From positions 1-64,000 of the IMG/VR virus record IMGVR_UViG_3300031994_000045: a stretch of 64,000 nt of DNA. One strand, given 5' to 3'. The first letter of the stretch is position 1. The number at the start of each line of letters is the position of its first letter. Under the pieces are notes generated by a model. That model worked only from the letters and a program-made list of their open reading frames with translations, did no database searches and had not been told where the DNA came from. Of the stretch, positions 9,001 to 63,107 are shown in pieces. Position numbers and translations under genes: made by a program. The DNA comes from a virus. Lineage: Duplodnaviria > Caudoviricetes.

Positions 9001-12000
9001 CACTCGTCCACCCTGCTTCCGAACATGGCGGACACGTTGCCGCGGGCGTTCGAGTCCCGCGCGGGGTCGAACTCCTCGTTCGCGCACATCGAGAGCTGGA
9101 TGCAGGCCGCGAGCTCGGCTCCGGTGAACGTCGTCCCCCCGTGGCTGCACACCACGTCCTTCCTCGCCGCGAGCTCGTTGTACCCGGCCCGGAGGACCTT
9201 CGCCGCGTCCGCGCTCGCGCGGAGGACGAGCGACACCTCGTTATGCTCGCCGACCTTGACTTCCTCGCCGGTTTCCGGGTCCGTCTCCGTTATGTCGCGG
9301 GTGTCTGTGCGGAGCATGGTGAGCATGTCGACGACGTTCTGGGACATCCCCGCGGCCGTCCCCTTGTTCAGGGCCGACTCCACGAGGCCCTTCAGCGCCT
9401 TGGCGAACGACGGGTACTTGTCCTCGACCAGCTTCCGGTACGGGGCGTCGCCGAACTTCACGACGCCCGCGCGCACGCAGCCGAGCAGGTGGGACAGGTT
9501 CAGCCGGTTCGCCTGGATGGTGCCGAGGTCCGCGTAGTCGGCCGCGAACTCCCGCGCGACCGCGAACAAGACGGCCTCGTCGTTCGCGGGGTTCCCGTCC
9601 GAGTCCGCCACGGACATCGGCCGCTGCCCGGTGCGCCCGAGGTACCACGCCCAGTCGGAGGGGTCTTCGGTCGCCTCGGCGAAGTCGGCGTCGCCGCGGA
9701 CGCTGCGGTCCGACGCGAGCGGGTTCCGGCCGGCCGCGATGTCCTCGAGCCGCAGCGCGGAGGCCAGGTAGGCGACCGACATCGCGTCGCCGGTCGCCGC
9801 GCCTCCCTCGATCGCGCGGTCCATCTTGCCGAGGAGCCCGGTCGCCCGCGACCCGCCCATGCGCAGGGCCGTGTCCGGCGAGAGCCCGTCCTCCGCCTCC
9901 AGCAGGTCGTTCAGGGCCTGGAACATGGACAGGTCCTTCTTCGCCGCGGCGAGCGCGGAGCCGATGTCCGCGGACGACAGGAACCGCAGCCCGACGGCGA
10001 CCCTCGTCGCCTGGTCGACGCCGGCCGGACGGCCCTCGTTCTTCCCCTCGAGGACGTCGGCGATCGCGAGCGCGGTCTCCTCCCCGAAGATCTCGGAAGC
10101 CGGGCGCCATCCGAAGTTGTACGCCTCTTCACGCGCCTCGGCGTCGATGAAGTCGGCTTCCGTCATGCGGAGCGCCCTCGCGATCCGCTTCATCAGCCGG
10201 TCGATGCACGTCGGGACCATGTCGCCCCTGGCCGGACGCATGCTGTCGTTCGCCGCGTCGAACCAGGAGAGCTCCTTACTCAGGCTGGGCATGCTCGGGA
10301 CTGGCTTGGAGTACCGCCCGTACTGCCCCTCGCCGATGTCGAGCCTGCCGTCCTTGACGAGCAGGACGTCCTTGAACGCCTGCTTTGCGATGCACCCGCC
10401 CTTCGTGAGGACCATCGTGTTGTACATGCCGAGCAGGGTCTTCCGCTCGTGGCCCGGCAGGAACGTGTCCCTCGTCGAATGGTCGAAGAACGCGTTGGCC
10501 TTCGCGATCAGGCTCGGAAGCGTCGTGTCCGACGCGTGCAGGTCCCTGGCGAACCCCACGAGCTTCACGAAGAACCACTTGTCGTCCCACCGCGGCCCCG
10601 TGCCGGAGCGCTTCGGCGCGTCCCGCCACGCCTTGTATTCCTCGTTCGCGTCCGAGAGGAGCCTTGCCGTCAGGCAGTTGAGCAGCCCGGCCTGCCACCC
10701 GGCGCGCGGCGCGAACAGGTCCTTGACCACGTCGAAGAGCGCGTTCGAGATCTTGTCCAGGTGCCCGATGAAGTCCTCGATCGGGCGGTACCCGTCGCGC
10801 TCCTCGTAGAGCGCGGGGGCAAGCCCGCGGACGTAGGAATCCGTGTCCGCGTAGCCCGCGAGGTGCTCGAGGGCCGCCTGGAGAGACACCGCGACGCCCC
10901 GAGCCCTGTTCGCGTCGGCCGCGCAGCCCGAGAGATACGCGGCGACGCGCGGGTCGAGCAGGTCCAGCGTCGGCATCGTGTGGGACGAAAGCTTGTCGAT
11001 GCACCGCTGGAAGACGTCGTAGTACTTCTCTCCGGCGACCTCCGACTCGTCGACGCCGAGGACCTGGGCCGCAAGCGCCGCCGCCTGCCCTCCCGACTTC
11101 ATCTCGACGTCGCCCGAGACGACCTTCGTCCCGACGGGGCTGCGTCCGGCGAGCCCGTAGTCCGGGATCGTCCTGTCCCCCGCCATCGCGTTCACGTCCC
11201 TCGCCCCGAACTCGTCCTGCGTCTCGTTCGGCATGAGCCTGTAGTTGTCGATCTCCTCCTGGAGCAGCACGTTGCCGATGAGCTCGCGGAAGCGCCTGGA
11301 GGGCTTCACGATCTCCAGCCCGTCCTCGGTCGTCTCCGTCTCGAAATACTGGGGGAACCGCGTCCGGAGCAGGTTGACCGTGTCCTCGGCCCCGAGGAAC
11401 CTCTCCAGGTCGTCCGCCCCGGCGTCTTTGAGGCGGGCCGCGATCGTGGCGTGGATCTGGTCCAGTATCTCGCGGTCGTGCCGGTCGAGCCCCTTCCCGG
11501 ACATGACGGTGCCGGTCGTCGAGTCGCCGTCCGTGTCGGACCCCTGCGAGGAGTTCATCAGCGGAGGAAGGATGTACAGCGCGTGCTCGTCCACCTGCCC
11601 CGACGCCCGGTCGAACAGGACCGGGGCCTGGACGCGGATGAGGCCGCCCGCCGACTCGAAGTTCCCCGACGGACGCCGGTCGCCCGCGAAGAACGCGCCG
11701 CCGAGATAGATCGTGCGCGCCCCGTTCTTGTCCATTTTCTTCTGCGCGTCCCCGCGGAACTCGAACGCGGCGAGGTCGAACCTGTCGCCGCCGTACCGCT
11801 TCCCGAGGAACAGGTCGGAGAACGAGACCTTCATGAGGTCGCACGACGGGTTCTCGTTCAACGTCTTCCCCGTGTAGTCGGTGAACGCGGCACCCAGCGT
11901 CTTGGCCATGGCCGCCTTCACCTTCCTGTTCCGCATCCGGTCGAACGCCTCGATGTACGCGGCGAGGTACGCGACCGTCTCCATGTCCTCGTCGGCCGGT

Positions 12001-15000
12001 CCGTATGCCTGCTCCAGCCTCTCGAGGTTGGCCCGGTACGCGTCGGACCATTTCCGGCTCCCGTCCACCGCGGCCCGGATCTCCGAGAGGTCGGCGTTCT
12101 CCGCGAGGTGCCACCCGTAGCGGAACGACGGGTCCAGGACGTTCACCTGCCCGGACGAGTAGGACCGGCCGACGCCGAACGCCGCCTTTTCGGCGGCGGA
12201 GAGGACCCTCGCGTCGCGGAAGCAGTCCTTGTCGTACTCCGTGACCCCGGCCGAGTACGAGTATTTGACGGAGTACGTGCCGTCGGGGTTCCTCGTGACC
12301 TCGCTGGCCTTTATGCCCGAGCCCATGAGCACCGCGTGCATGGAGTTCACGTAAGGCTTCATCGCGCCCGCGTAGACCGTGTTCATCCTGCGGACGACCC
12401 GTTCCTGGACGTCCTGGCTGTTGGGATGGGCCCTGTACGCGGCGTACAGGTCCGGGTCCGTCTTGAGCAGCTCGTCGAAGAACCCGGGCTGCGCGCGCAG
12501 GAGAAGGTACGGGACCGCCCGCGACACGTTGATCGCCTTCGTCGCGTACCACGTGAAGTCGGCCTGCTCCGGAACCATCTTGCGGAGCCTGCCGGAGTTC
12601 GCGACGACGTCGCGCGTCCAGTTGGTCGCGGCCGGATGCTCGAGGGAAGGCCTCGCGCTCGCGTCCGAGTTGGCCATCACCTGGCCGGACATCGTCCGCG
12701 TGAAGTAGCGGACGCGGAACCCGCCGGACTCGCTCGCGACGACGGAGAGCTTGTCGCCGTCCTCCGTCCCGTAGTCCTGGAAGAGCCCCGACTCGGAGAG
12801 CGGCTTCGTCTCCGTGACCTCGCCCGTCGGCAAGGTCCACTCGGCCTCGATGGACCCGACGTCCTCCGCGGACAGCTCGGACTTTCCGAGGACCTTGGCG
12901 ATGACCGGGAGCATGGTCGTCACGGACGCCGCGGAGTTCTTGAACGCGGGAACGACATGCGACCCGCCGAGGAGGGATTTCGTTTCCCCGTCGACCCGGA
13001 CGTCGAACCTGACCACGTTCCCGCTGGCGTCCTTCTCAAAGCCGAACGTCAGCTCCTTCCCGCCGGCCTTGACGGTGAACGGCTTCCCGGATTTCGCGAA
13101 AAACCCGCACTTGTCGCTGACGGACCCGGTCTTCACCGTCTCCATGTCCGTGCAGAACGTGGTCGACGACTGGAAGAACGCCTCGACGAGCTTCAGCGCG
13201 GATTCCCTGTACGCCTTGTCCTCGTCCGAGAGCGGCGCGTCGGGGGCGGGAAGGTCGAGCGTCCCGGCCTTTATCCCCAGGACCTCCTCCAGCCTCCGGC
13301 GCTGTACGCGGCAGGCCTCCGCCAGGGCGCCGGACGCCGGGACCGGATCGGTCTCGTACATGCCGAGCCCGAAGTCGTGGCCCTGTCCCTTGAAGAACGT
13401 CGCCCCGAGCACGTGGTTCTTGAACGACACCGCGCGCGGATTGGTCGCCTGCGCGCGCTGCGACTCGATCAGGAACCCGTGGTTCAGGTACATGCCGAGG
13501 TTCTCGCCGGCGTCGTTCCCGGAGACCAGGATGTCGCAGTACAGGCCGGGCGTGACCCTCGTCTTCCCGTCCATCGCGGTCACGGCCGCGTCGACCTCCT
13601 CGACCTTCCCGTCGACGGTCTTGCGCATCCGGTCGCGGTAGGTGGAGAACGGGACGCCCTGCGCGAGCAGCACCTGGACACGCTTGGGGTCGATCTGGTC
13701 GCATCGCGCCGCCGACGCGACGACCGCGTATATCGCGCGGTAGAGCGCGTCACGGTCGGCGGACGTCCCGAGCTTCGTCCCGTCGTCGACCGACCTCGGG
13801 AGGACCCCGTCCTCGACCATCTTCCGCGTGACCTTGTTCATCGCCCAGTCCGCGCCGGCATGGATCCCGTCCAGGACCGCCTGCATCACGTCGTGCGGCA
13901 GGCAGACCGAGTACACCGTGGGCTTCTCGCCGTGGTACAGCTCGAAGTAGCCCGTCCTCGTGTCCCCGCGCACGAACCGCGAGATGTTCGCGTTCGCCAC
14001 GATCACCGACAGGTGCTGCTTGTCCACGAGCCTGTTGTTCTCGAGCCTCGCGCCCGCCGTCACGGCGACCAGCCGGGTCCCGTCCTCGAACCGGCCTCCC
14101 CTCTGGAGGTAGCCGTCGAGGACGCCGAGCGGGGCCAACAGCCTGTCCTCGATCGACATCATCATGACCGGGGGCGACGCCGGGGTCGCCGTGACCTGCG
14201 AGGAGTCCTCGATGGACTCCTGCCGCGTGCCGGACATGCGCTCCACGGAACGCGGGGCCGACGCCGCGTACAGCTTGAACACGGAATCGAAGTACGAGCT
14301 GACGGCGCCGCCCGTCATCGGGTTCTTGAACCACTGGTAGCGGGGCGCCGCCTGCGGCTGCGGGTTCCCTCTCGCGAACAGGCGCGCGATCACGTCGTCC
14401 GACAGCGCGCCCAGGAGGTCGCCGACCGAAAGCCCCGCGCTCACGATGTCGTCATACTGCTTTTTCTTTTCCCCTTCCTTGCTGAAGGTCGGCGTGCGGC
14501 CCTTCGTCCACGTCGCGCGCTGTATCGCGGCGATCGTCGGGTTCAGGACGGCGGAGCTCAGCAGCACGCACCTGGACTTGAGCTCGGCGCTGGCGGCGCA
14601 CGACCTGAACAGCTTCAGCAGGTCGTCCGCCACCCTCTCCATCGCGGCCCCGTCCTTCGCGTTGCGCACGGACCGCACGATCCCGCCCAGGAGATCGGGG
14701 CTCCGGAGCGCGTACGCGAGCTCGTTCCCGGGTCCGATCACGTAGTCGAGCGCGTCCGCGACGGCGGCCATCCGGCGGACGAGCGCGTTCGCGAACGCGA
14801 CGAGCGTCTTGTCGTCCCCGGGGGCCTTCTCGAACGCAGCCCCGATCTCCGCCCCTTCGTTCGCGGGGGCCAGTATCCGCTCGAGCTCGGCTATCGTCTT
14901 CGTCCTGAGCGGGGTCCCCGCCTTCTTTTTCTCGAACCATTTCGCGGACCCGGTCGAGAGCAGCAGGTTGTCGAGCGCGGACATGGTGTCGGACATCTGG

Positions 15001-38727: not shown

Positions 38728-40511
<1,784 letters not shown>

Positions 40512-40512
<1 letters not shown>

Positions 40513-41237
40513 CAGACGTTGACCTCCGCGCTGACGACCGTGGCCCCGTCCGGGTCCGTCTCGGTCCCGCCGGGGACTCCGGCCCGCAGGTCGGCGTAGT
40601 ACGTCCCGGCGACCTTTATGATCCTGAGGAGCCACTTCCGCGACGGAAGCGCGAACGAGTCCTGGTGGCCCCACGTCGGGCGGGAACCTCCCACGAGCAC
40701 GTCCGAGAACGGAAACCGGCTTCCGTCCGTGGACTCGATCGCCACGTAGACGTCGAACGGGCCGTCCGGCGGGACGATGGAAAGCGGCTCGTACACGACA
40801 GGCGACGCGAGCCTGACCTGCGTCATGCTCGCCATCTGCACGACGCGGGACGAGATGACCCCGAGGTCGACCTCCGTCCTCTCCTGCGACGGCTGCCCCG
40901 GCGAAGACCCGGTCGGGAGCCCGGTCACGGACGCGTCGGCGAGCAGGATCGTGTCGCCGGCGAGGACGACGCGGAGCCTCGCGGAGGCGTCCTCCGCCCA
41001 CGAAGGGACGGAAAGCGTCCCGACGCGGACGCCCCGCCGGAGCGGATCCGCGGCCAGCGCGCAGGACGCGTGCTCGACGCCCGACGCCTCCAGGGCGAGC
41101 GACGCGTCGGACGACGTGTCCTCCCGGAACTCGGGGGCGTCGACGAAGATGCTGTACGTCGAACCGGCGAACAGCCTCTGCCCGCCCGGAAACGCGGCGA
41201 GCGAATCGTTCAGCTTCCGTAGCCTCAGCTCGGGCAT
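40512..41237 (-). CDS. Hypothetical tail-module protein (241 aa)
   Basis: ORF translationally coupled to the collagen fibre gene. Confidence 0.65.
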
Positions 41238-41244
41238 GGTGCCG

Positions 41245-41592
41245 CTACCCTTGCGCCCCGGTCCCGACGTAGTCGATCAGCCCGGTCAGGTCGTCCGCCG
41301 AGAGGAAGATCCCGAGCTTCCTCACGTACAGCTCCCCGCCGGCCGTCTCGACGCCGGCCTCGACGCCCTTGCGGACGAGGTCGAGGTCGATGTTGCCCTC
41401 CCCGTCCACGAGCCCGAGGTCCTTCATGTCCGCGAACTGCTCGTCCGTGATCCGGAGCATGCCCATCGCGTGGGCCCACCCGATCTTGAACCTGGCCGCG
41501 TTGTCGGCCTTCTTGTCCTTCAGCTTCGGCAGGAGGACCGTCGTCACGTACTCGTCCAACCTCTTGCCAGCCAGCTCTCTCGATACCTTCAT
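41245..41592 (-). CDS. Hypothetical protein (115 aa)
   Basis: ATG 41592 (MKVSREL...) with AAGGA RBS. Confidence 0.7.
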   Translation of the reverse strand: MKVSRELAGKRLDEYVTTVLLPKLKDKKADNAARFKIGWAHAMGMLRITDEQFADMKDLGLVDGEGNIDLDLVRKGVEAGVETAGGELYVRKLGIFLSADDLTGLIDYVGTGAQG

Positions 41593-41630
41593 TTCCGTTC
41601 CTTCATCTTCGTTCTCCTTCGTGCGGCCGG

Positions 41631-41684
41631 AAACAACCGGACGCCGGCGGAGGGAAGCCCGGGCTGCCTCCCGCCGGCGTCCGG
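41631..41684 (-). terminator. Intrinsic terminator-like hairpin
   Basis: 14-bp inverted repeat CCGGACGCCGGCGG (41637-41650) / CCGCCGGCGTCCGG (41671-41684) followed by TTGTTT on the minus strand. Confidence 0.6.
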
Positions 41685-41690
41685 ACCGTC

Positions 41691-42182
41691 TTAGCCCTGG
41701 CCCTGCTGCGCGGTCTTCGCGGCGGGCATCGCGGCGGCGATGGCCGCGGCGAGCGCGGTCACGTCGGGGACCGGAGGCGGGACGGGCACGACCTGCACCG
41801 GGCCGACGCCGGGGTTGAGGTTCCCGTTCGGGATCGTGAGCTGCGTCATGCCGTAGAGGCGGTCGACGGCCTTCTCGAGGCACGCGATCTTGCCCTCCTG
41901 GACGGCGTTCCACGCGACCTGGCGCGTGTTCAGCTCGTTCGCGTAGAGCTTCGACTTCAGCTCCTGGTTCTCGGTCGTGAGGTCGAGCACCTTCTGGGTG
42001 ACCGGCTCCATGCCGGGCGGAGGCGGAGGAGGCGGGTTGCCCCCGAGAACGCCGCCGAGGATTCCGCCGGGGCCGGAGACGGCCTTCGCGGCGACTGCCG
42101 TGGCGACCCCCGCGAGCCAGTACAGCGGGCCCTTGAGCCCGCCGCCGTCGTAGGCGGTCTCCTCGTTGCTGTCGGATCTCAT
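41691..42182 (-). CDS. Hypothetical protein with a hydrophobic Gly/Ala segment and coiled coil (163 aa)
   Basis: AAGGAG RBS; 'LYWLAGVATAVAAKAV...GGILGGVLGG' followed by a heptad region. Confidence 0.75.
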   Translation of the reverse strand: MRSDSNEETAYDGGGLKGPLYWLAGVATAVAAKAVSGPGGILGGVLGGNPPPPPPPGMEPVTQKVLDLTTENQELKSKLYANELNTRQVAWNAVQEGKIACLEKAVDRLYGMTQLTIPNGNLNPGVGPVQVVPVPPPVPDVTALAAAIAAAMPAAKTAQQGQG

Positions 42183-42243
42183 GCTATGATTCTCCTTGTT
42201 GGATGTTGCGTTGACTTCTCCCCGCCCACCCGGGCAGGGAAAA

Positions 42244-42609
42244 TCACTTCTTCGCCGCGGGCTCGGCCGGCACGGGCTCGGTTGGCGCCTGGTCCTCGGG
42301 CGCCTCCGCGTGCTCCTCGGGGGCCGACATCTCGGACTCGAGGATCTTCTCGGCGGCCTCGACGGCGGCGTAAGTGGCGCACTCCTCGTGGTAGTGGATC
42401 CACTTCATGACGGCCATGCCGGCGGCGGCCTTCTGCGGCGGCTTCCCGTGCGCGAGGACGTCCTCGTACATCGTCATCACGCCCTCCCACGAGCAAGGGT
42501 CCATGCCTTCGGGAAGCTCGGCTCCCATGGCGCGGAGGCACGTCACGGCCTCCTTCTTGCTCTTCATGAAATGGTCCTTCATGATCGTAGCTTCGGTCTC
42601 TGGCTTCAT
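42244..42609 (-). CDS. Hypothetical protein (121 aa)
   Basis: AGGAG RBS and a promoter directly upstream. Confidence 0.75.
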   Translation of the reverse strand: MKPETEATIMKDHFMKSKKEAVTCLRAMGAELPEGMDPCSWEGVMTMYEDVLAHGKPPQKAAAGMAVMKWIHYHEECATYAAVEAAEKILESEMSAPEEHAEAPEDQAPTEPVPAEPAAKK

Positions 42610-42639
42610 GGCTTTCTCCTATGGCTGGATGACGGTCCA

Positions 42640-42669
42640 ATGATACCACAAAAGGCGCGGCGGGGTCAA
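42640..42669 (-). promoter_or_regulatory. sigma70-type promoter
   Basis: TTGACC-18 nt-TATCAT with TGTGG before the -10. Confidence 0.7.
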
Positions 42670-42779
42670 GCGAGTCGCGAAAATTTTCTCAAGAATCTTT
42701 CACGCCCACCGATTGCCAATGATCGCCTTCCTGATCGCGTCTCTGTTCTCGGCCAGATTCGTAAGTTCTGATGCTATGC

Positions 42780-43544
42780 TCATGGCAGATTGAACCTCTC
42801 TTGGTCAATGGCGTAGTTCGCGGCGATCTCGTCGGCGGCGAGGGCTCTGTTATAGAACCTTAGGGCATACGCGTGTCCGTCGTCCGGCGGGGATGGCTCC
42901 CACCACCGTCCAGTTCCGCCGAAGAGGTTCGTCCCCGCCCCAAACAGAACTCCGTCAGAAGTGACTGTCACTGCCTGGACGGAACCAGAGCCGACGCTCT
43001 TATACGAGCCTGCGTCGTAGAAGATAGTCGTTACGCCCGTCCCTTCTATATGCTTGGTTATGGCAGTGCCTATTCCTGGTCTTGCGGCATTGTTCGCGTG
43101 GAACTCGTAATTCATCCCCATGCGGAACTTCATGTTGTTGGCTTCGCCAGACATGGACATCGCCCTGCTCGCATACACGTTCAGTCCGAAGAACGGCGTG
43201 GAGTCCACAAGCGAAGGCGTCCCGAGTTTTCTTACCACCTCAAGGGTGCAATCGCCTTTCACAGCATCCACAACCGAAGTCGACGCCGTGAAGGCCCAGC
43301 TGAATGTGCCGTCCATCGTGCACGAGTTTTCGTCGAACGGGCTAGACCTTGAATATCCGCTTCCTTTCACTATGACGGCGTCGTTTCCGTTGCCCGAAAG
43401 ATCCTTCCATGCCTCCGACCCGTTGTCGTGCTTTCCGCCAGCGACATTCCAGATTCCGTCCCACATGGCTATGAGCCCGTCCGTGACGTAGGGGTTTACC
43501 CATCCGCCGACCGCCATACCGTTCCTGTCGGCTATCAGCATCAA
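42780..43544 (-). CDS. LamG/concanavalin-A-like putative receptor-binding protein (254 aa)
   Basis: N-terminal YVTDGLIAMWDG...WKDLSGNGND and C-terminal LRFYNRALAADEIAANY are laminin-G-like hallmarks; lower GC. Confidence 0.8.
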   Translation of the reverse strand: MMLIADRNGMAVGGWVNPYVTDGLIAMWDGIWNVAGGKHDNGSEAWKDLSGNGNDAVIVKGSGYSRSSPFDENSCTMDGTFSWAFTASTSVVDAVKGDCTLEVVRKLGTPSLVDSTPFFGLNVYASRAMSMSGEANNMKFRMGMNYEFHANNAARPGIGTAITKHIEGTGVTTIFYDAGSYKSVGSGSVQAVTVTSDGVLFGAGTNLFGGTGRWWEPSPPDDGHAYALRFYNRALAADEIAANYAIDQERFNLP

Positions 43545-44164
43545 ATACCTCCTTCCACGGACGCGGAGAGAATCGCCTCTGCTGTCGCGTCGTCGATGCC
43601 GAGCGTCGTCTTTATCGCCGCGAGGAACGGCGCGAAGTACTCGTTGTCCTCCGCGAACGTGAGCGCCGTTGAGTACGCCCTGCGGAGCGGCATGGTCTCG
43701 CCCTTGTCGTTAGTTATGGTCTGAGCGTCGATGAACGCGTCTACTGCCGGAAGCAGGCCTGCCTTGAAAAGAGCGAGCTCAAGCCGTAGCTTTGAGAACA
43801 CGCGAGGCGGAGGCGGAGGGTCGTCCACGAGGACGTACTCCAAGAAGTAGTACGTGTCCGCGCCTTTTATCTTGCCCGTCTTCTGCCAGTGTTTCCCCTG
43901 CTCGTGCAGTCCGGGGGTCATGTCGTAGAGGCGGAGGTAGCCAGCCTGCGCCCAGTCTGCGGCCTCAGGCTGCTGGACGTACTTGTCCTCTATCCAGTCG
44001 GACTCGCGGTGTATCGTCTCTCCCGTTGGCTCTCCAGTCTCCGGGTCGATCACGTCCTCGTCCCAATCCTCGTGGTGCGGAATATGGAGGACGAGTGGGA
44101 TCGGGGCGTAGAGGGGATATCCGTTCTCGTCAGGCTTCGCGTAGTCTTTGTTGTACTTGATCAT
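43541..44164 (-). CDS. Tail-fibre-associated (chaperone-like) protein (207 aa)
   Basis: Lies within the fibre cluster; 'PPPPRVFSKLRLELAL...' helical C-terminal domain. Confidence 0.55.
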   Translation of the reverse strand: MIKYNKDYAKPDENGYPLYAPIPLVLHIPHHEDWDEDVIDPETGEPTGETIHRESDWIEDKYVQQPEAADWAQAGYLRLYDMTPGLHEQGKHWQKTGKIKGADTYYFLEYVLVDDPPPPPRVFSKLRLELALFKAGLLPAVDAFIDAQTITNDKGETMPLRRAYSTALTFAEDNEYFAPFLAAIKTTLGIDDATAEAILSASVEGGI

Positions 44165-44218
44165 GGCAGGTCGAACCTTTCATTTCGCATTCGCAGACGA
44201 GTCTCCAGGATCCGTTTT

Positions 44219-45643
44219 TTACGAAACCGTCCATCCCTTCGCCTCCGCTATGGCAATCTCAGACGCTGTGAGTTTCGCCTTGTTTGCAGACCCAAGAGTC
44301 ATTGTCTGCCCGCTGACAGAAGGGACCCAGTACATGATGTACAAGAGAGAGTCGTGACCGACGAGAGGAGAGCTGTCTAGCTTGAAGCTCACCTTCGGAC
44401 CCTTTCCAAAATACGCGGTCGATCCTTCGACGCTCCCATCCGACGAGACCGTCTTGGAACCGATTATCGTCTCCAAGGCGTAGCAGTTGGCGAAAGTGTT
44501 GTTCCAATTGGTCATTGAACTACAGTTCCACCCAGATATATCGAGCGTCTTCAGGTAGTAGCACGAGCTGAACATGCCGTCTACAGACGTGCAGACAGAC
44601 GTCTCGAACAAATTGCTCAAGTCAAGGCTCTCTACTTTCGTGTTCGTGAACATTAATCCTGCATTCGTCACAAGCGGCAGCCTCAAAGACGATATGCCGA
44701 CAATTTCGCGAAGGGCACAGCAATAACTGAAAAGGTTCCGGCAAGTCGAAGATACATGGCTCGTATCCCAGTCTGACATGTCAATCTTTGTCATGCTTGA
44801 ACATGAGTTGAACATGTTGTTAATGTTAGTGACCCCAGACACATCCCAACTCGACAAGTCAAGCTCCAAAAGAGATGCGCAGTTGTCAAACATGGATTCC
44901 AAGCTATTGCAGTTAGACTTGACCATTCCGTCTGGAAGCGCCAGCTCGACAAGAGAAGAGCATCCTTTAAACATGGACGAGAACGATGCACACGATGAAA
45001 AGTCCCAGCTCGAAACGTCTATCCTCCTCGTCTTGCAGTTTTGGAAGAAGGCTGTGGCTCCATTGACGGACGTGAACACAGGAGGACGGCCGATCTTGAA
45101 CGACCGTACTGAAGCCGTCTCGTAGAACATCGCGTTGTATGTCCGAATCTCGATGCCGCCTGCAACAAATCTAGCCAACGCCTTCCACCCGGACGTGTCA
45201 TGACTCGCGTCGTGGAACGTATGCTCAGGAGCGTGCACCCACAGCTGCCCAGAGTAGTTGTAAGGGCCAAAGCATGGCTCAGGGACTCGAGTGTCTGCGG
45301 CGGAAGTGTACGATATGATCCAGAACGGTCTACCATAGTCTAGGGGCTCGATAGACCTGTCGCTCGAAGTGATGGCCTTCTCTGCCGTGTGAAGGCCATC
45401 AGACACTCTGACGTAAACAGGCATGTACGAGTCGTTGCGGAACGTGTACTCCGTTGCGCCTCCTCCAGGAGGGCCTGGATTGCAGAGCATTATCCACTTC
45501 TTTGTCGCGCCAGCATCAATGGCTGCCTGCGGAGTAACGTCCTGCGAGAGGACAGCCTCGATGTCAGGCCATGAGTCAGGCTTGCACCAGTCTTCGTGCT
45601 TGTTTGCCATCATACTTCTCGCTCCTATCTTCCCAAGTGTCAT
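44219..45643 (-). CDS. BspA/DUF285-type leucine-rich repeat protein (474 aa)
   Basis: Repeats such as MFKGCSSLVEL, MFDNCASLLELDLSSWDVSGVT, MFNSCSSMTKIDMSDWDTSHV; C-terminal 'AKLTASEIAIAEAKGWTVS'; low GC. Confidence 0.85.
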   Translation of the reverse strand: MTLGKIGARSMMANKHEDWCKPDSWPDIEAVLSQDVTPQAAIDAGATKKWIMLCNPGPPGGGATEYTFRNDSYMPVYVRVSDGLHTAEKAITSSDRSIEPLDYGRPFWIISYTSAADTRVPEPCFGPYNYSGQLWVHAPEHTFHDASHDTSGWKALARFVAGGIEIRTYNAMFYETASVRSFKIGRPPVFTSVNGATAFFQNCKTRRIDVSSWDFSSCASFSSMFKGCSSLVELALPDGMVKSNCNSLESMFDNCASLLELDLSSWDVSGVTNINNMFNSCSSMTKIDMSDWDTSHVSSTCRNLFSYCCALREIVGISSLRLPLVTNAGLMFTNTKVESLDLSNLFETSVCTSVDGMFSSCYYLKTLDISGWNCSSMTNWNNTFANCYALETIIGSKTVSSDGSVEGSTAYFGKGPKVSFKLDSSPLVGHDSLLYIMYWVPSVSGQTMTLGSANKAKLTASEIAIAEAKGWTVS

Positions 45644-46464
45644 GGCAGGTTGAACCTCACTTTGTCGATTGCGCAGTTGTGGGCGATCTCGTCGGCGGTG
45701 AGCACGTGGTCATAGACCGACAGACGCATGACGCGAGCACCAGATGATAGGGAAAACGAGCATATCGCGTTATCCCCAAACACGCGCCCTCTTAGATCGT
45801 TAGCGAAACGGTCATACATTTGGCTGCGTGTATAAGCTGTTGTCGCAATGTTATTGCCGTCTATGTAACAACGACCGCGACTCTCTCTCCCAAGGGTGTC
45901 GCTCATCGTTGTGCCAACATATCCAAGGTTGCGATAATTGTCCGTCTGTATTTCATAATTCCCCATGCCTCCTGCAAGCATGCGAAGCATCGACAGACTA
46001 TAGAACGCTCGCGCGCCGACATAATAACCGGGATAACTGCTCAATCCGTTTTCGCCAACCCACCAGACTGCCCCAACACCATACGCCCCTTCGCCCATGT
46101 GTCCCAAGTCCGCTACCATCTCAACGGACGTGCCGAGAGTGTCATCGCCGCATTCGGCATATCCGTGAGACGCTATAGCACCTGCGAGGCCGCGCAATTC
46201 CATGTTCGCGGAGCATGTAATGTATGTGTCGCCAAAGACCGCAGTACCAGAATAAGCTGCCAACTCCAGCCTATTGACTAGGTCGATCCACGTCGTTGCC
46301 GCCGGGTCATGCGTCTTCCACCCCGCGTTCTCGATGCCGTCCCACATCGCGACGAGCCCGTCCTGCACGTAGTCTTTCGCGGTCTTCTTCTGTGACTTCA
46401 TGAAGTAAAGCCCCATGACCGGCACAGACGTCACGCCGCCTGAAGCTGACCTTGATCCGCTCAC
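45640..46464 (-). CDS. Second LamG-like putative receptor-binding protein (274 aa)
   Basis: GTG 46464 overlaps the upstream TGA. YVQDGLVAMWDGIEN ... VYDHVLTADEIAHNCAIDKVRFNLP; paralogue of 42780-43544. Confidence 0.8.
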   Translation of the reverse strand: MSGSRSASGGVTSVPVMGLYFMKSQKKTAKDYVQDGLVAMWDGIENAGWKTHDPAATTWIDLVNRLELAAYSGTAVFGDTYITCSANMELRGLAGAIASHGYAECGDDTLGTSVEMVADLGHMGEGAYGVGAVWWVGENGLSSYPGYYVGARAFYSLSMLRMLAGGMGNYEIQTDNYRNLGYVGTTMSDTLGRESRGRCYIDGNNIATTAYTRSQMYDRFANDLRGRVFGDNAICSFSLSSGARVMRLSVYDHVLTADEIAHNCAIDKVRFNLP

Positions 46465-48545
46465 GATCCGGCCTCCTGCTTCTCGACGACCTGCTTCACG
46501 ACCTTCCACGCAGGCTTGGCGGACGTCCCGAACGCCGTCATCGTGAAGTACAGCTCGCATTTCTCCCCGCCTTCGAACGTCAGTATGTCGGTCAGGAGAT
46601 TCTGGCCTTCTGGAGTAAACACGTCGAAAGAAGTCCCGAACCCGTTCAGCGTGGCCGTCGCGCTGTCCGAAGCGTTCGCCGAGTTGTCCACGTCGAGCAC
46701 GAAGTCTCCGACCTTTCCGCCTGGCACGGACGGCATGTCGAAAGCCTGCGTAGTCGTTCCTGACGCGAACGCGTAGAGGTTCACCCTCTCGCACGACAGC
46801 GAGACCGAAGATGCGGAAGACATGTCGTACCCTTGGATCCACAGCGTCTCGCCGCCGGCAGACACGACCTCAAGGCGCCCGTCCGACCTTATGTCAAGGG
46901 TCGCGTCCGGAGACGTCATGTCGACGTACTCCCAGTTCGAGGCACCCGTCCACTCGCCTGCGACTGCCACGGCCGTCTTGCACCTGTAGAGCGATCCTCC
47001 GTAAGTAACGTACTCTCCAACCAGATACGTGAGGGAATCGCTAAACGGAGGAGCCGCGGAAGAGGCGTCGAGCTTCCCGTCGAGAACGGCCGGGTCTATG
47101 CTTCCCCCGTTCGTGATGTCGGCCGCATGGAACACTCCGGGGGCGACCTCCGTAAAGCGGTAGAGATACGTCCCCGCCGCGAACGTGCCAGGCGGCGCGC
47201 CCGCCGAGTCCCAACTATCGCCCTGCGCGACGGCCCACGTCACCACGCTCGTCGCGCTCACAGACAGCCGCACCAACAGGTCGCGCGAATGGCCCGGATT
47301 CGCCGGAGGAAGCGTCAGCATCGTGGTTGTCGATACGGGAACCGCGTTCACAGCGCGGTCGGCGAGATGGTCGGGGAGAGACGCGCGAGTGGCGGTAATA
47401 TGACGAGATTCATACTGAAACATCACAGACAAATCGTTCTCGTGTGATTCATCGTACCACGAATCGCTGACAAAATCTTTCTGTATGGAATCTTCGGCAA
47501 TCACGAGCTGCCACCAATACGTTTCTCCGCTATTCCTGAAAGTCGGGCCGCTGTATATCGTCTCGTTTTCGCTAAGGCCGCTTACCGTCCATTCGCCCGG
47601 CACGACGAGCGCGTAGGGAAGCGCGTCCGCGTCCGCCTTCAGCGCGAGCGCCGCGTTCACCTCGCTCGCATTCGCCTTCCCGCTCACGTCCTGGTGCGCC
47701 GTCAGCACCGTCGCGCTCGTTCCGTCCTTCAGCCGTATCGTCGTCTTGTCCGCGTCCGCGCCGGTCCCGGGCGTCACGGACATCTCGCTCCTGTTCGCCT
47801 TGCCGCCGAGCGCGACGACCAGCCCGGTCACGTCGCTCATCCCGTGCACGTGCGACCCGGGCGGGAACGTGTCCGGCTTGTTCAGTATCCGCGCCTTCCC
47901 TTCCGTCGCGTTCCAGTCGGCGTTCACCTGCTCGGCGGGGATGGCCAGCGTCACCGCGCCCGTCTGCCCGTTGACGCTCGTCACCGGCGACGCCGCGATC
48001 TCGACGTACTGAGACCCGCTCCAGCGGTACGTCCTGTTCGTGTCCCGCGCGACGTAGATCTTGCCCGTCTCCCCGCTCCCGGGGAAGCCGCTCAGCGCGG
48101 AATACTCCAGCACGTCGTCCACGTAGGACGGGAGGAGCGAGGACTTTATCCGGCCCCCGTCGAACAGGCCGGAGGGCTGCACGGCCGAGTCGGCCTTGCC
48201 GAGGCTCTCCTGGACGGCCACGGCGAGGGCGGCCTTCGCGATGCCGGACGCGGGGGCGAACGTCCCGGACTCGACGATCCGGGCCAAGAAGGGCGCGAAA
48301 AGGTCGAGGTCGAGGAGCGCCCGGTCCAGGACGGACCTCACGTAAGGCCCGATGTCCACATTGCCGAAGCGGTCCGGAACCTCGCCGGACACGGACATGA
48401 CGGGCATCACGGGCGCGACGGGGACGAGGACGGGAGGGGCCACGACGGGCACCGAGCTCGCCGGGGGAGGCGGGGAGAACGGGGCGCACGCGCGGGGAAC
48501 GGACCCCGCGCCGCAGGGTATCTGGCATCTGTCGCTGTCTGTCAC
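46461..48545 (-). CDS. Tail fibre protein (694 aa) with a carbohydrate-binding-like module
   Basis: GTG 48545 with GAGGA RBS. Fibre motifs LPSYVDDVLE...GKIYVARDTNRTYRWSGSQY, VTSVNGQTGAV, QVNADWNA...ILNKP, HVHGMSDVTGL; CBM5/12-like TYLVGEYVTYGGSLYRCK. Confidence 0.85.
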   Translation of the reverse strand: MTDSDRCQIPCGAGSVPRACAPFSPPPPASSVPVVAPPVLVPVAPVMPVMSVSGEVPDRFGNVDIGPYVRSVLDRALLDLDLFAPFLARIVESGTFAPASGIAKAALAVAVQESLGKADSAVQPSGLFDGGRIKSSLLPSYVDDVLEYSALSGFPGSGETGKIYVARDTNRTYRWSGSQYVEIAASPVTSVNGQTGAVTLAIPAEQVNADWNATEGKARILNKPDTFPPGSHVHGMSDVTGLVVALGGKANRSEMSVTPGTGADADKTTIRLKDGTSATVLTAHQDVSGKANASEVNAALALKADADALPYALVVPGEWTVSGLSENETIYSGPTFRNSGETYWWQLVIAEDSIQKDFVSDSWYDESHENDLSVMFQYESRHITATRASLPDHLADRAVNAVPVSTTTMLTLPPANPGHSRDLLVRLSVSATSVVTWAVAQGDSWDSAGAPPGTFAAGTYLYRFTEVAPGVFHAADITNGGSIDPAVLDGKLDASSAAPPFSDSLTYLVGEYVTYGGSLYRCKTAVAVAGEWTGASNWEYVDMTSPDATLDIRSDGRLEVVSAGGETLWIQGYDMSSASSVSLSCERVNLYAFASGTTTQAFDMPSVPGGKVGDFVLDVDNSANASDSATATLNGFGTSFDVFTPEGQNLLTDILTFEGGEKCELYFTMTAFGTSAKPAWKVVKQVVEKQEAGS

Positions 48546-56452: not shown

Positions 56453-56482
56453 ATTATACCACAATTCCCCGCGTCCCGTCCA
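56453..56482 (-). promoter_or_regulatory. sigma70-type promoter, probably giving a leaderless mRNA
   Basis: TGGACG-18-TATAAT (TGTGG extension) followed by CCGTCCC-ATG; no RBS. Confidence 0.7.
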
Positions 56483-56707: not shown

Positions 56708-56729
56708 TTTATTTTATCCTTGGTTGCGC
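56708..56729 (+). promoter_or_regulatory. 22-nt early motif, copy 1
   Basis: TTTATTTTATCCTTGGTTGCGC; the sequence repeat is certain, its promoter role is inferred. Confidence 0.75.
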
Positions 56730-56755
56730 AACAGCGCAGAAAGGAGCCGGTACCC

Positions 56756-56809
56756 ATGACGTACCAAGTCTTTCCAGACGGCACGGTGGTTATAATCCGC
56801 CGGGCCTAG
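56756..56809 (+). CDS. 17-aa micropeptide MTYQVFPDGTVVIIRRA
   Basis: AAGGAG RBS at 56741-56746, motif upstream and terminator downstream. Confidence 0.5.
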   Translation: MTYQVFPDGTVVIIRRA

Positions 56810-56816
56810 TCCCCTT

Positions 56817-56848
56817 CCCCGAGCCCGAGTGGGTTCGGGGTTTATTTT
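56817..56848 (+). terminator. Intrinsic terminator
   Basis: CCCCGAGCCC-gagt-GGGTTCGGGG followed by TTTATTTT. Confidence 0.7.
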
Positions 56849-56862
56849 ATCCTTAATTGCGC
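56841..56862 (+). promoter_or_regulatory. 22-nt early motif, copy 2
   Basis: TTTATTTTATCCTTAATTGCGC. Confidence 0.75.
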
Positions 56863-56953
56863 GGAGAGAATCTGCGCGTCGTTCGTGCTGTCCTGCGTCT
56901 CAAGTCGAGATGCACACGAAACGACGCGCAGCACAGCTCAAGAGCGCATCGTT

Positions 56954-57340
56954 ATGATGAACGAGTCCATCCCCACCCCGGAGTCCCCCGTCGCGGCCAC
57001 CGCGTTTGGAGCCGAAGTCACCGAAACGCCGAAGCGCGTCAAGAAGACTTTCGCGCTCGACGACCCTGGCTTCACCCGCGAGGCTCCGCGCACGAACATC
57101 ACACTCAAGATGGTGTTTAAGTGCGTGCTGTCCGGCAAGGGCAAGCCGTACTTCCGCTGCCCGGATACCGAGAACGGCACCGTCATGGTGTGCCCGAAGG
57201 ACACGCCCGACGGCCTGATCGGGAAGTGCGGGTACCTCACGATCGGATGCCTTCCTGGTACCGTATTCGAGGAGTCGGACAGGGTCGCCGGAGCCGTGAT
57301 GCCGTCCAAGCCGGTCACGTTCGTGTCGTTCCGCGACTAG
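56954..57340 (+). CDS. Early hypothetical protein (128 aa)
   Basis: Codon-biased ORF (MMNESIPT...) between a motif copy and a terminator. Confidence 0.75.
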   Translation: MMNESIPTPESPVAATAFGAEVTETPKRVKKTFALDDPGFTREAPRTNITLKMVFKCVLSGKGKPYFRCPDTENGTVMVCPKDTPDGLIGKCGYLTIGCLPGTVFEESDRVAGAVMPSKPVTFVSFRD

Positions 57341-57348
57341 CCGCCCCA

Positions 57349-57380
57349 GCCCCGTCGCGCCTCGTGCGCGGCGGGGTTTT
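57349..57380 (+). terminator. Intrinsic terminator (identical hairpin at 57777)
   Basis: CCCCGTCGCGC-ctcgt-GCGCGGCGGGG followed by TTTT. Confidence 0.8.
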
Positions 57381-57381
57381 C

Positions 57382-57403
57382 TTTATTTCATCCTCGACTG
57401 CGC
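57382..57403 (+). promoter_or_regulatory. 22-nt early motif, copy 3 (degenerate)
   Basis: TTTATTTCATCCTCGACTGCGC. Confidence 0.6.
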
Positions 57404-57479
57404 CGGAATCCGCGCTGTCCTGCGTCCCGCGACTGGGACGCACGCGAGATGAAGACGCCTTGCCGAAAGGAGCAAGCCT

Positions 57480-57770
57480 ATGTCGATCCCCCGTAAGTAC
57501 AAGTCGTTTTCGGATGTAAAGACAGGCGATGTCGTGTACATCGCCTGGTTCATCGCATCCGAGAACGGAGGACGCGAACCGTACGCCCCGAAGCTGGTCG
57601 TCCACGGGACGGACATGCTGGGCAATGTCGCCGTGCGCGACGCACGGCATACGGACCGCACATGGTACGACGGCGGCTGCGAGTGGACGCCGTTATGGCT
57701 GGCGCTGTACGCGACGCGCGAAGACGCGATCGCCGCACTAGAGCATGCCGCAAGCCACGGCGAAGTGTAG
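57480..57770 (+). CDS. Early hypothetical protein (96 aa)
   Basis: AAAGGAG RBS; bounded by a motif copy and a terminator. Confidence 0.8.
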   Translation: MSIPRKYKSFSDVKTGDVVYIAWFIASENGGREPYAPKLVVHGTDMLGNVAVRDARHTDRTWYDGGCEWTPLWLALYATREDAIAALEHAASHGEV

Positions 57771-57776
57771 CCGCCT

Positions 57777-57811
57777 GCCCCGTCGCGCCTCGTGCGCGGC
57801 GGGGCCTTTTT
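57777..57811 (+). terminator. Intrinsic terminator
   Basis: 28 bp identical to 57349-57376, followed by CCTTTTT. Confidence 0.8.
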
Positions 57812-58044
57812 CGCGTCGGGGAGAGACCGGTGTGGACCGCCCTCCCCGCCCGGTCTCCGGCTTGGGGAGCCTGGGGCTACCGGTTCCGGCCCGTCGGAAC
57901 CCGCATGTTAGGGTGGCTACCTGTCCGTTCGAGGTTCGGAACCGCGTGTCGGGGTGGCCACCTGCGACCGGTTCCGCCCGCCCACCCCACCCGCTCCAGG
58001 GCCCGCCGGAGCCACCGCCGCCGAGCCCCCACTTCCAACTCCCA

Positions 58045-58066
58045 TTTATTTTATCCTTGGTTGCGC
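58045..58066 (+). promoter_or_regulatory. 22-nt early motif, copy 4
   Basis: TTTATTTTATCCTTGGTTGCGC. Confidence 0.75.
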
Positions 58067-58150
58067 CACCGGGCTGGAAGCGCGTTTGTTCGTGTCCCGA
58101 GGTCGGGACGCGGCGCGTGGAAGCCTGGGAAGCGCAGTATAGGAGTCGTT

Positions 58151-58588
58151 ATGAAGGATGAAAAGATCGAGGTGAACGAGAACGCAGTCGAGACGAAGGC
58201 CGTCGAGACGAAGGCCGTGGCCGTGGCGGCCGAGGAGTTCGAGGAGTACGGGTCTATCGAGGTGACGGGCAACTTCCGCGGGTTCTGGAGGGATGTCCCG
58301 GTCCGCGACGAGGCCGGCAACCCGACGCTGGACGAGAACGGCGTACCGGTGAAGCGTCGCCAGTTCAAGATCTCGAGGACGGTCAAGCTGAACGACAAGC
58401 CCGTGCGGCAGACGGCGTGGCTCTCGGAGGCGGACGCGAAGGCGCACAAGCTCGAGGACGGGGTCAAGTACAACCTGACCTTGTCTGTCGGGGAGAACCT
58501 GACGCCGTCGAAGGGCAACGGACGCGACGGGTACCTGGACGAGTACGCGTTCGCGGACGCGACGATCGTGAGCGTCAACTCGAAGTAG
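58151..58588 (+). CDS. Early protein (145 aa), possible OB-fold ssDNA-binding protein
   Basis: TAGGAG RBS; beta-strand pattern SIEVTGNFRGFW...QFKISRT...YNLTLSV...ATIVSV. The fold is a guess. Confidence 0.7.
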   Translation: MKDEKIEVNENAVETKAVETKAVAVAAEEFEEYGSIEVTGNFRGFWRDVPVRDEAGNPTLDENGVPVKRRQFKISRTVKLNDKPVRQTAWLSEADAKAHKLEDGVKYNLTLSVGENLTPSKGNGRDGYLDEYAFADATIVSVNSK

Positions 58589-58603
58589 GCCAGTCGCCCG
58601 GGG

Positions 58604-58690
58604 CCCCGGGGATCCGCGAGGACAGCGCGGGTTCCCGGGGTTTTGCTTCGGTTCCTCGGGTTCCTTCGGGTTCCCGGGGTTTTTTTTTTC
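58604..58690 (+). terminator. Intrinsic terminator with a duplicated 3' arm and long U-tract
   Basis: CCCCGGGGATCCGCG...CGCGGGTTCCCGGGG-TTTT, then repeated CGGGTTCC units and a poly-T run. Confidence 0.7.
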
Positions 58691-58730
58691 CGCTCCGCCC
58701 GACCGGTCGTCGAAGGGTAGGGTGGCTACC

Positions 58731-59200
58731 ATGTGCTATAATTGCAAAAATGGGCATTTTTGGCGCCACGGGAGGGTTTGGCGTGATGTTATGTCAACTA
58801 GCGAATTTAGAGTTTTCTAGTTGCGCATACTTCACGCGGGGATTTGGCGCGAAAGCGCCCAAGTTTCCCTATGTGTCCGCTCATCCCGCTATTTTCTACT
58901 ATATATTATTTCTTAAGAGTGAAAAAATATATATAAATAAGAGTATAAGAGAGTAAAAAGCACCTATAAGAGAATAAGATTTTTTTTTCGATAGAATTTT
59001 CAGTACTGCCACAACGAATAAAATAAACGAATATCTTGGCAAGGTGTAGAGCGATAGTACATTTTCCGTGATTCATGAAATGCGCATATAGAGATTTCCG
59101 AATTGTCTCGGACGAGCTGTACGAATTGCAGTTTTGAGCACGGCAACCGATCCTTTACCCCACACCACATTTCACTTCCCATTTATTTTATCCTTAATTG
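58731..59200. other. AT-rich non-coding tract, candidate replication origin
   Basis: Sharp drop in GC, A/T runs, ATAAGA repeated four times at about 58937-58979, and TGTGCTATAAT at its left edge. Confidence 0.5.
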
Positions 59201-59203
59201 CGG
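59182..59203 (+). promoter_or_regulatory. 22-nt early motif, copy 5
   Basis: TTTATTTTATCCTTAATTGCGG. Confidence 0.75.
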
Positions 59204-59284
59204 GCTTGTCTCGGGGCGATGTCATGGGTCGTCTCGAGGCTTGTCCGCTTCGATTTTGGATGTCGACCGGAAAGGAACGGACAG

Positions 59285-62574: not shown

Positions 62575-62709
62575 ATGGGTATCCTCTCGGACGCCACCGT
62601 GCTGGCGCTCATGAACCACCCCGAGACGGTCGAGCCCGACGACCTGCGCATGCAGGACGAGATCGGGTTCGAGGCCTTCATCGAGGCCTGGAGAAGGGGG
62701 ATCCTGTGA
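62575..62709 (+). CDS. Small hypothetical protein (44 aa), not in the ORF track
   Basis: AAGGAGG RBS; MGILSDATVLALMNHPETVEPDDLRMQDEIGFEAFIEAWRRGIL; GTGA-coupled to the next gene. Confidence 0.65.
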   Translation: MGILSDATVLALMNHPETVEPDDLRMQDEIGFEAFIEAWRRGIL

Positions 62710-63107
62710 GCGCGAAGTTCACGCGTGTAGTGGAGGCCCTGGAGCGAGACTCCGGGGTCTCCGCGAGGACCGCGAACTGCCTGAAGAGGCTTTGCGCGGA
62801 GTTCGCGACGGAAGACGACTTCTTCCGGGCGACGAGGGGGGACCTGATGAGGGTCTGGGCCAAGCTCGAGCCGAACTCGAAGAAGGGCCTCGGCCAGAGC
62901 CTGTTCGACGCCTTCTCGAAGGCGTCCGCGCTCTGGACGTCGTCCGACGTCGAGAAGGCCGCGAGCCTCCCGGACCCGCTCGCGAGGCCCGCCACGCAGG
63001 AGCTTCTCCTGTGGATGGCGAGCTTCCTGGAGTCCAACAAGGTCGAGCAGATGTCCTTCGGGCGGCTGCTCGACATCTGGGACCAGGTCCAGGAGGCGAA
63101 GAGGTGA
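62706..63107 (+). CDS. RNA polymerase alpha-subunit CTD-like protein (133 aa)
   Basis: VSARTANCLKR...EDDFFRATRGDLM...KGLGQSLF resembles the alpha-CTD consensus LSVRSxNCLK...GDLVQxTExxLL...NLGxKSL. Confidence 0.55.
   Translation: MSAKFTRVVEALERDSGVSARTANCLKRLCAEFATEDDFFRATRGDLMRVWAKLEPNSKKGLGQSLFDAFSKASALWTSSDVEKAASLPDPLARPATQELLLWMASFLESNKVEQMSFGRLLDIWDQVQEAKR

Follow-up and report, generated by a model that had tools for sequence, protein, structure and literature searches.

The window analyzed here, the first 64,000 bases of the 100,129-bp IMG/VR record IMGVR_UViG_3300031994_000045 (genome G000; CheckV completeness, 100%), comes from an uncultured gut phage of ~100 kb with a GC content of 66%. 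It contains five plus-strand copies of a 22-nt motif, TTTATTTTATCCTTRRTTGCG(C), placed before the first genes of a long rightward block. These 22-mers are very probably promoters, and by analogy with other phages the best single explanation, to which we assign roughly an even chance, is that they are read by the phage's own virion RNA polymerase. Tentatively, TTTATTT-ATCCT-N4-TGCG could be the first recognizable, sigma-free promoter consensus of a single-chain virion RNA polymerase of the gp66 type known from crAss-like phages, in an undescribed family of gut phages with high-GC genomes of ~100 kb and polymerase polyproteins of ~7,400 residues.

A repeated motif at the start of the early region

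Copies 1, 2, 4, and 5 match the motif exactly, and copy 3 has three mismatches (Table 1). A sequence-only reading of this DNA had reported five plus-strand copies, each ~25 to 90 nt before a gene, and had noticed the motif nowhere else; all five were located where it had placed them, a ribosome-binding site and a start codon follow each copy (the motif ends 27, 91, 76, 84, and 81 nt before the respective start codons), and a search of the whole record allowing up to three mismatches returned no further copy. That reading had also called for a scan of the whole genome. A position weight matrix (PWM) built from the five copies scored them at 34.5 to 43.1 bits, far above the next-best genome site at 19.6 bits, and no match occurred in any of 100 dinucleotide-preserving shuffles. 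An unbiased search of the sequence for repeated 16-mers was dominated by GC-rich noise. A sixth PWM match, at 85273, was set aside as a terminator T run and a sigma70 promoter that precedes the DNA polymerase gene.

When the five copies were aligned with 120 nt of upstream and ~30 nt of downstream flank, conservation was restricted to the 22-mer and had sharp edges. Positions 1 to 7 (TTTATTT), 9 to 13 (ATCCT), and 18 to 21 (TGCG) are invariant, positions 15 and 16 vary (GG, AA, or GA), and the 22-mer contains no inverted repeat and has no dyad symmetry. An inverted half-copy, TTTATTTTATTC (59016 to 59027, minus strand; 19.1 bits), lies 155 nt upstream of copy 5 at the edge of an AT-rich island.

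The cluster lies exactly where the two large gene blocks diverge. The leftward block runs from 48.7 kb down to position 1 and over the contig junction and holds structural genes and a 7,428-codon open reading frame (ORF); the rightward block, from 56.7 kb, encodes a helicase, a PD-(D/E)XK nuclease, a family A DNA polymerase, and a D5-type primase-helicase. The motif copies face a leftward sigma70-type promoter at 56482 to 56453. Each of copies 1 to 4 heads one small gene (17, 128, 96, and 145 codons, respectively), and terminator hairpins stand immediately upstream of copies 2 and 3. Behind copy 5, no sigma70-like plus-strand promoter was found between 59.2 and 76.96 kb, the first being a strong one at 76,962 to 76,991. 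The genes behind the motif have long structured leaders and ribosome-binding sites, unlike the leaderless sigma70-type genes of the phage family. A promoter role is well supported because of this position and orientation, the sharp edges, the upstream terminators, the structured leaders, and the ribosome-binding sites, and also because copy 5 is the only promoter-like element before a gene block of ~17.7 kb.

When the leader RNA was folded from motif position 19, copies 1, 2, 4, and 5 had their first GCGC paired distally so as to close the whole leader stem. The leader folds had z-scores of −4.2 (copy 2), −4.0 (copy 4), and −3.8 (copy 5). Because ~25% of random GCGC-started windows close the same kind of stem, the presence of such stems from G19 in four of the five copies (p ~0.016) is no more than suggestive of a start site there. 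The hairpin within the copy 5 leader is a candidate attenuator and may gate entry into the long early block.

We hypothesize that the phage uses the 22-mers as its early promoters and that transcription starts at about G19 to G21 of the motif, 5 to 7 nt after the invariant ATCCT, which would give the layout TTTATTTTATCCT-(5-7 nt)-G. Copies 1 to 4 would yield four short single-gene transcripts, each closed by its own terminator, and copy 5 would yield one long transcript into the early gene block. The reader would be a sigma-less two-barrel RNA polymerase embedded in a giant protein of the virion module, entering the cell together with the DNA and recognizing the AT-rich, easily melted 13-nt block and the start region. 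Host RNA polymerase would afterwards transcribe the replication and structural genes from their sigma70-type promoters, a simple temporal program, own polymerase first and host polymerase next, for a large uncultured phage family.

A two-barrel RNA polymerase within a giant protein

The giant protein of the leftward block has 42 homologues of 5.7 to 7.9 thousand amino acids (aa), and QG-DTDGDS is invariant among the aligned homologues (11 in one alignment, 21 in another). An AlphaFold2 (AF2) model of residues 2900 to 3700 built from a 22-row alignment reached a pLDDT of 84 and a pTM of 0.84; with a 5-sequence alignment, the pLDDT was only 40. In a structural comparison of the core model with 48,161 chains (VIA-align), the top match was gp66 of the crAss-like phage phi14:2 (6VR4; Z 12.1, rmsd 4.3, 380 residues aligned), the second was QDE-1 (Z 8.3), and the lower ranks included P23-45 gp96 (Z 5.0) and RDR2 (Z 4.1), interspersed with unrelated helical matches. 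All four of these proteins are single-chain two-barrel polymerases. As judged from the predicted model, this confirms structurally that the genome encodes a two-barrel RNA polymerase of the virion type. Sequence searches of the giant protein against Pfam, PHROGs, and the PDB (phmmer and profile) gave no polymerase signal, no sequence-level link of the core to gp66 was found, and a Foldseek search of the core model against the PDB returned nothing significant.

Neither a sigma factor nor a second DxDGD protein was found in the genome. A search of the genome for a T7-type polymerase (PF00940) gave no match, but the control of that search also failed. A weak Sigma70_r2 match at 46.3 kb was spurious and lay in a tail-fiber-like protein. 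The position of the giant gene within the leftward structural block is the one hint that virions may carry the polymerase. The sequence-only reading had proposed promoters read by an injected RNA polymerase; the anatomy expected of promoters is there, as is a polymerase with a two-barrel fold, and the pairing of the two is made by analogy and exclusion.

Distribution of the motif among relatives

Relatives were recruited through the DNA polymerase, which was chosen as the anchor because no homologue of the neighboring 1,233-aa protein was found. This yielded four IMG/VR genomes (G001 to G004, 60 to 76% identical) and one contig binned in a metagenome-assembled genome (MAG). The only other carrier of the motif that we found is L035, a near-identical metagenome fragment of 1,749 bp. 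It keeps copy 4 exactly, and its copy 3, TTTATTTCATCCTAGATTGCGC, is closer to the consensus. The L035 gene upstream of copy 3 is just 60% identical, against 96% for the terminator, motif, and leader, and from this alignment the boundary at copy 3 resembles a cassette-swap junction such as those described in T4 PeSLs. A metagenome scan with the motif gave 15 matches, of which only L035 was related. The exact motif had no match in IMG/VR, and a degenerate form had 87 single unrelated matches there, with no contig carrying more than one copy. A profile of the polymerase core found no relative in IMG/VR, and no match to the DNA or to the DNA polymerase was found among GenBank phages. Phages whose polymerase core is closer (P0002 to P0017; 64 to 72% identical, on contigs of up to 101 kb) are known only from ENA/Logan, where contigs also encode P0045 to P0068, with a DNA polymerase 85 to 93% identical; all of these lie outside the compared set. 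By these comparisons, the motif appears lineage specific. Pairwise alignment of the G002 early upstream regions showed no shared private motif and nothing above shuffles.

An AT-rich island lies just before the early block in all five family genomes (window 58887 to 59039; G001 76977 to 77094; G002 78753 to 78817; G003 6481 to 6710; G004 9395 to 9505) and is a candidate for a replication origin or a genome terminus. In G000, G001, and G002, it shares the sequence …AGAGTGAAAAAAT…, followed by repeated TAAGAG/TAAGGG boxes, and the G000 sigma70-type promoter at 58734 points into it. One relative, L048 (CAYPEJ010000018.1; 91,134 bp), was binned in a MAG labelled Anaeromicropila; its phage family has a GC content of ~65%, and the binning is probably an error and not a clue to the host.

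Relation to sigma70-type host promoters

Host-type promoters are well defined in these genomes, and so the motif can be seen to differ from them: near-consensus TTGACA-N17/18-TGnTATAAT promoters are numerous before replication and structural genes, both in this genome and in its relatives. A sigma70 scan found no plus-strand site at any of the five copies, with no −35 element and no TG extension, which agrees with the sequence-only reading that no TATAAT lies 17 nt after the terminal TTGCGC and no −35 before the internal TATCCT. No −10 element follows the TTGCGC end of the motif at 17 to 18 nt, and no −35 lies 16 to 18 nt upstream of the −10-like pattern. TTGCGC, with which the motif ends, is the −35 hexamer of three sigma70-type promoters of the genome. 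The −10-like pattern TAnnnT is present as TATCCT in four copies, with CATCCT in copy 3.

In many sigma70-type promoters of the phage family, an ATG or GTG lies 6 to 7 nt after the −10, giving leaderless mRNAs (window 56453 to 56446, minus strand; G001 15381, 54299, and 54356; G002 6390, 44400, and 77480; G003 88843; G004 7719). Because several promoters of the family drive leaderless genes, an actinobacterial-type host is hinted at. Between their −35 and −10, the replication-gene promoters have in common a palindromic spacer (CACCGACGTCGGTG or similar), which may be a built-in operator; it was seen at G001 44299, 48214, 53672, and 54299 (minus strand), at G002 8164, and at G000 76983 and 91536 (outside the window). 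The sequence GGGTGGCYACC, with the palindromic core GGTGGCCACC, has three exact copies in the window (57911 to 57921, 57952 to 57962, and 58720 to 58730), one of which overlies the −35 position of the promoter at 58734 and may be an operator; its count at one mismatch was not above chance.

Comparison with known early transcription systems

Phages of the AR9, phiKZ, and P23-45 type combine a conserved AT-rich element of at least ~10 nt, repeated before early genes, with a genome-encoded two-barrel RNA polymerase, and both were found here, the polymerase through the AF2 model and its structural matches. Virion-polymerase motifs of jumbo phages are ~10 nt long, AT-rich, centered near −10, and phage specific (PMC7598289). 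The AR9 virion-polymerase promoter is AAATATATATTAT-(6N)-G+1, and extended AT-rich early motifs, with the start 6 nt downstream, are present in all phiKZ-type phages (PMC5312081). As in the jumbo phages AR9, phiKZ, and phiR1-37, a conserved AT-rich block of ~10 to 13 nt near −10, private to the phage, stands here before early genes, and the layout TTTATTTTATCCT-(5N)-G, drawn for a putative start, resembles those of AR9 and phiKZ. Unlike the split beta/beta' enzyme of these jumbo phages, the core here is a single chain within a 7,428-codon protein; five copies occur here in a genome of 66% GC, compared with 34 to 41 in AR9.

In P23-45, the polymerase gp96 is fused to a giant tape-measure protein, and the pre-early genes near one end of the genome carry the strongly conserved AT-rich motif that gp96 uses (bioRxiv 10.1101/2022.12.01.518664). 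The phage studied here resembles this Thermus phage in having a single-chain two-barrel polymerase in a giant protein (a virion protein in P23-45 and presumptively so here) and in that the AT-rich motif of a GC-rich phage is confined to a short block of first genes whose units have their own terminators. However, gp96 is just a weak structural match (Z 5.0), and P23-45 has a second, non-virion polymerase with GC-rich promoters, of which no counterpart was found in our search (the T7-type control having failed). Later genes of the phage studied here have sigma70-type promoters, unlike those of P23-45.

The closest structure to the core, phi14:2 gp66 (PDB 6VR4), is the virion RNA polymerase of its phage, and phi14:2's middle and late genes are likewise on host sigma70-like promoters. 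In vitro, gp66 is efficient on single-stranded DNA only, and native phi14:2 DNA is transcribed weakly. Start-site selection by sigma-less, single-chain two-barrel polymerases of the gp66/QDE-1 type is a question to which phi14:2, with no definable promoter, gives no answer. A short, sharply bounded motif together with a gp66-fold polymerase would supply a defined template for in vitro transcription work.

In coliphage N4, the promoters are DNA hairpins, and their reader is a T7-like single-subunit enzyme. The few N4 promoters (P1 to P3) are clustered at the start of the early region, as are the copies here, and their reader is injected; however, the 22-mer has no hairpin with a 5- to 7-bp stem and a 3-nt loop, nor any inverted repeat, and the polymerase is of the two-barrel type. 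The composite PeSL cassettes of T4-like phages (PMC2839356, PMC4122927) are reported to be repeated units of a stem-loop and an early promoter. The likeness lies in a stem-loop and a candidate promoter flanking small variable genes and in the L035 junction that resembles a cassette swap. However, the stem-loop stands directly before the motif at copies 2 and 3 only, and the promoter type differs, PeSL promoters reportedly being sigma70 early promoters.

Weighing of alternative explanations

Several observations weigh against transcription of these genes by the phage's own polymerase. TATCCT fits TAnnnT and lies at a proper distance from the proposed start, so that host RNA polymerase stays a candidate reader. 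In phi14:2, the early transcripts that gp66 makes showed no common upstream motif. The high identity among the copies could stem from copy-to-copy exchange, as in T4 PeSL cassettes. At up to three mismatches, the motif is absent from five relatives (G001 to G005) that carry the homologous giant protein; G001 to G004 have no private repeated motif of their own, their only over-represented AT-rich word being the sigma70 extended −10 element; and in G002 a sigma70-type promoter occupies the site equivalent to copy 5. The lack of the motif in relatives weighs little, because the polymerase cores of G001 to G004 are only 24 to 30% identical to that of G000.

The main rival, which we regard as unlikely, is that the motif is an unusual promoter of the host RNA polymerase, with TATCCT as a −10-only element, the upstream T-rich tract as an UP-like element, and a start at G19 to G21; the near identity of the copies would then have arisen through duplication and gene conversion of promoter-terminator cassettes. 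TATCCT keeps T-12, A-11, and T-7 and lies 5 to 7 nt before G19 to G21, but copy 3 has C at −12, and sigma contacts leave the invariant CC at −9/−8 and TGCG at the start unexplained. Promoters with only a −10 are common in actinobacteria, the type of host at which the leaderless genes behind several family promoters hint. However, every copy lacks both a −35 and a TG extension, while the other promoters of the phage are near consensus. Comparison with relatives gives this explanation some support, in that the equivalent of copy 5 is a sigma70-type promoter in G002 and a TTGACA and TACCCT pair in G004, and in that the diverged L035 gene abuts the conserved terminator-motif boundary in the manner of a cassette junction. 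Against it, a phage with its own polymerase would be expected to have matching promoters on its first genes. If host polymerase does read the motif, the motif would be merely an odd promoter in a cassette-shuffling region.

Two explanations dispense with a promoter. That the 22-mer is the site of a DNA-binding protein (a repressor, an antiterminator loader, or an origin or iteron protein) is improbable: the five direct repeats do adjoin the family-wide AT-rich island with its TAAGAG-type boxes, to which the reverse complement of the motif, TTAAGGATAAAA, bears a loose likeness, and the inverted half-copy lies nearby, but the motif lacks dyad symmetry and its copies are spread over 2.5 kb in a single orientation, each tied to one gene. 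Moreover, without promoter activity of the motif, neither the 17.7-kb block nor the cassettes that follow terminators would have any promoter. A role at the RNA level, either as an AU-rich single-stranded cleavage site before a stable hairpin, at which a longer transcript would be processed, or as an anti-Shine-Dalgarno UCCU, appears highly improbable. RNase E-type sites consist of an AU-rich stretch followed by a stem, which the motif and leader resemble, and UCCU, if transcribed, would in copies 1 and 4 pair with the ribosome-binding site. However, read-through should be blocked by the terminators that directly precede copies 2 and 3, no plus-strand promoter was found upstream of copy 1, and the invariant TGCG block would remain unexplained.

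Cassette genes and other features of the genome

The features of the early region and of the polymerase gene are collected in Table 1. No Pfam family was found in the tested cassette and early proteins, save DUF6926 in one ORF of the early block, and the stretch from 56 to 64 kb gave no tRNA or Rfam match. An ORF at 62706 to 63107 considered as alpha-CTD-like was rejected: at E <= 0.05, it matched no Pfam family, that of the RNA polymerase alpha C-terminal domain included.

Table 1. Coordinates in the window of the motif copies, cassette elements, host-type promoters, and polymerase gene
Feature	Position	Strand	Remarks
Motif copy 1	56708..56729	+	TTTATTTTATCCTTGGTTGCGC; heads 17-codon ORF
Motif copy 2	56841..56862	+	TTTATTTTATCCTTAATTGCGC; T-rich half doubles as U-tract of terminator 56817-56840
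Motif copy 3, degenerate	57382..57403	+	TTTATTTCATCCTCGACTGCGC; directly after terminator; T-rich half doubles as U-tract
Motif copy 4	58045..58066	+	Same sequence as copy 1; 100% conserved in L035
Motif copy 5	59182..59203	+	TTTATTTTATCCTTAATTGCGG; sole promoter-like element ahead of ~17.7 kb of rightward genes
17-codon ORF, first cassette	56757..56810	+	Ribosome-binding site AAAGGAG, read from the sequence
Cassette gene, 128 aa	56954..57340	+	No Pfam family; L035 allele only 60% identical
Cassette gene, 96 aa	57480..57770	+	No Pfam family
Cassette gene, 145 aa	58151..58588	+	No Pfam family
First gene of long rightward block behind copy 5, 107 aa	59285..59608	+	
Intrinsic terminator hairpin, 10 pairs	56817..56840	+	Closes 17-codon cassette
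Intrinsic terminator hairpin, 13 pairs	57348..57378	+	After gene 56954-57340
Terminator	57777..57805	+	After gene 57480-57770; 28-nt core identical to that at 57349-57376
Terminator hairpin and ten-T run	58664..58679	+	After gene 58151-58588
Attenuator-like hairpin, then TTTTGG	59234..59253	+	Inside copy 5 leader
Host-type extended −10 promoter	58734..58742	+	TGTGCTATAAT; points into AT-rich island; contrast to motif
Divergent host-type promoter	56453..56482	-	TGGACG-18-TGTGGTATAAT; ATG 7 nt after −10; leaderless leftward gene
Giant ORF, at least 7,428 codons	3..22286	-	Carries polymerase
Two-barrel RNA polymerase core (predicted), residues 2900-3700 of giant ORF	11187..13589	-	DTDGD motif begins at 11537

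Within the leftward block, the stretch from 38731 to 46842 (minus strand), which includes a part of lower GC content (51 to 60%, at ~43 to 46 kb), encodes collagen-repeat, BspA-LRR/DUF285, and lectin-like proteins that are probably tail fibers. A 59-nt repeat occurs at 42780 and 45640. The contig ends overlap by 21 nt (window 9 to 29 and G000 100109 to 100129), and the giant ORF extends beyond base 1. The assembly of this record is probably circular or permuted, and its ends are probably not true linear ends; G001 to G003 likewise have end overlaps.

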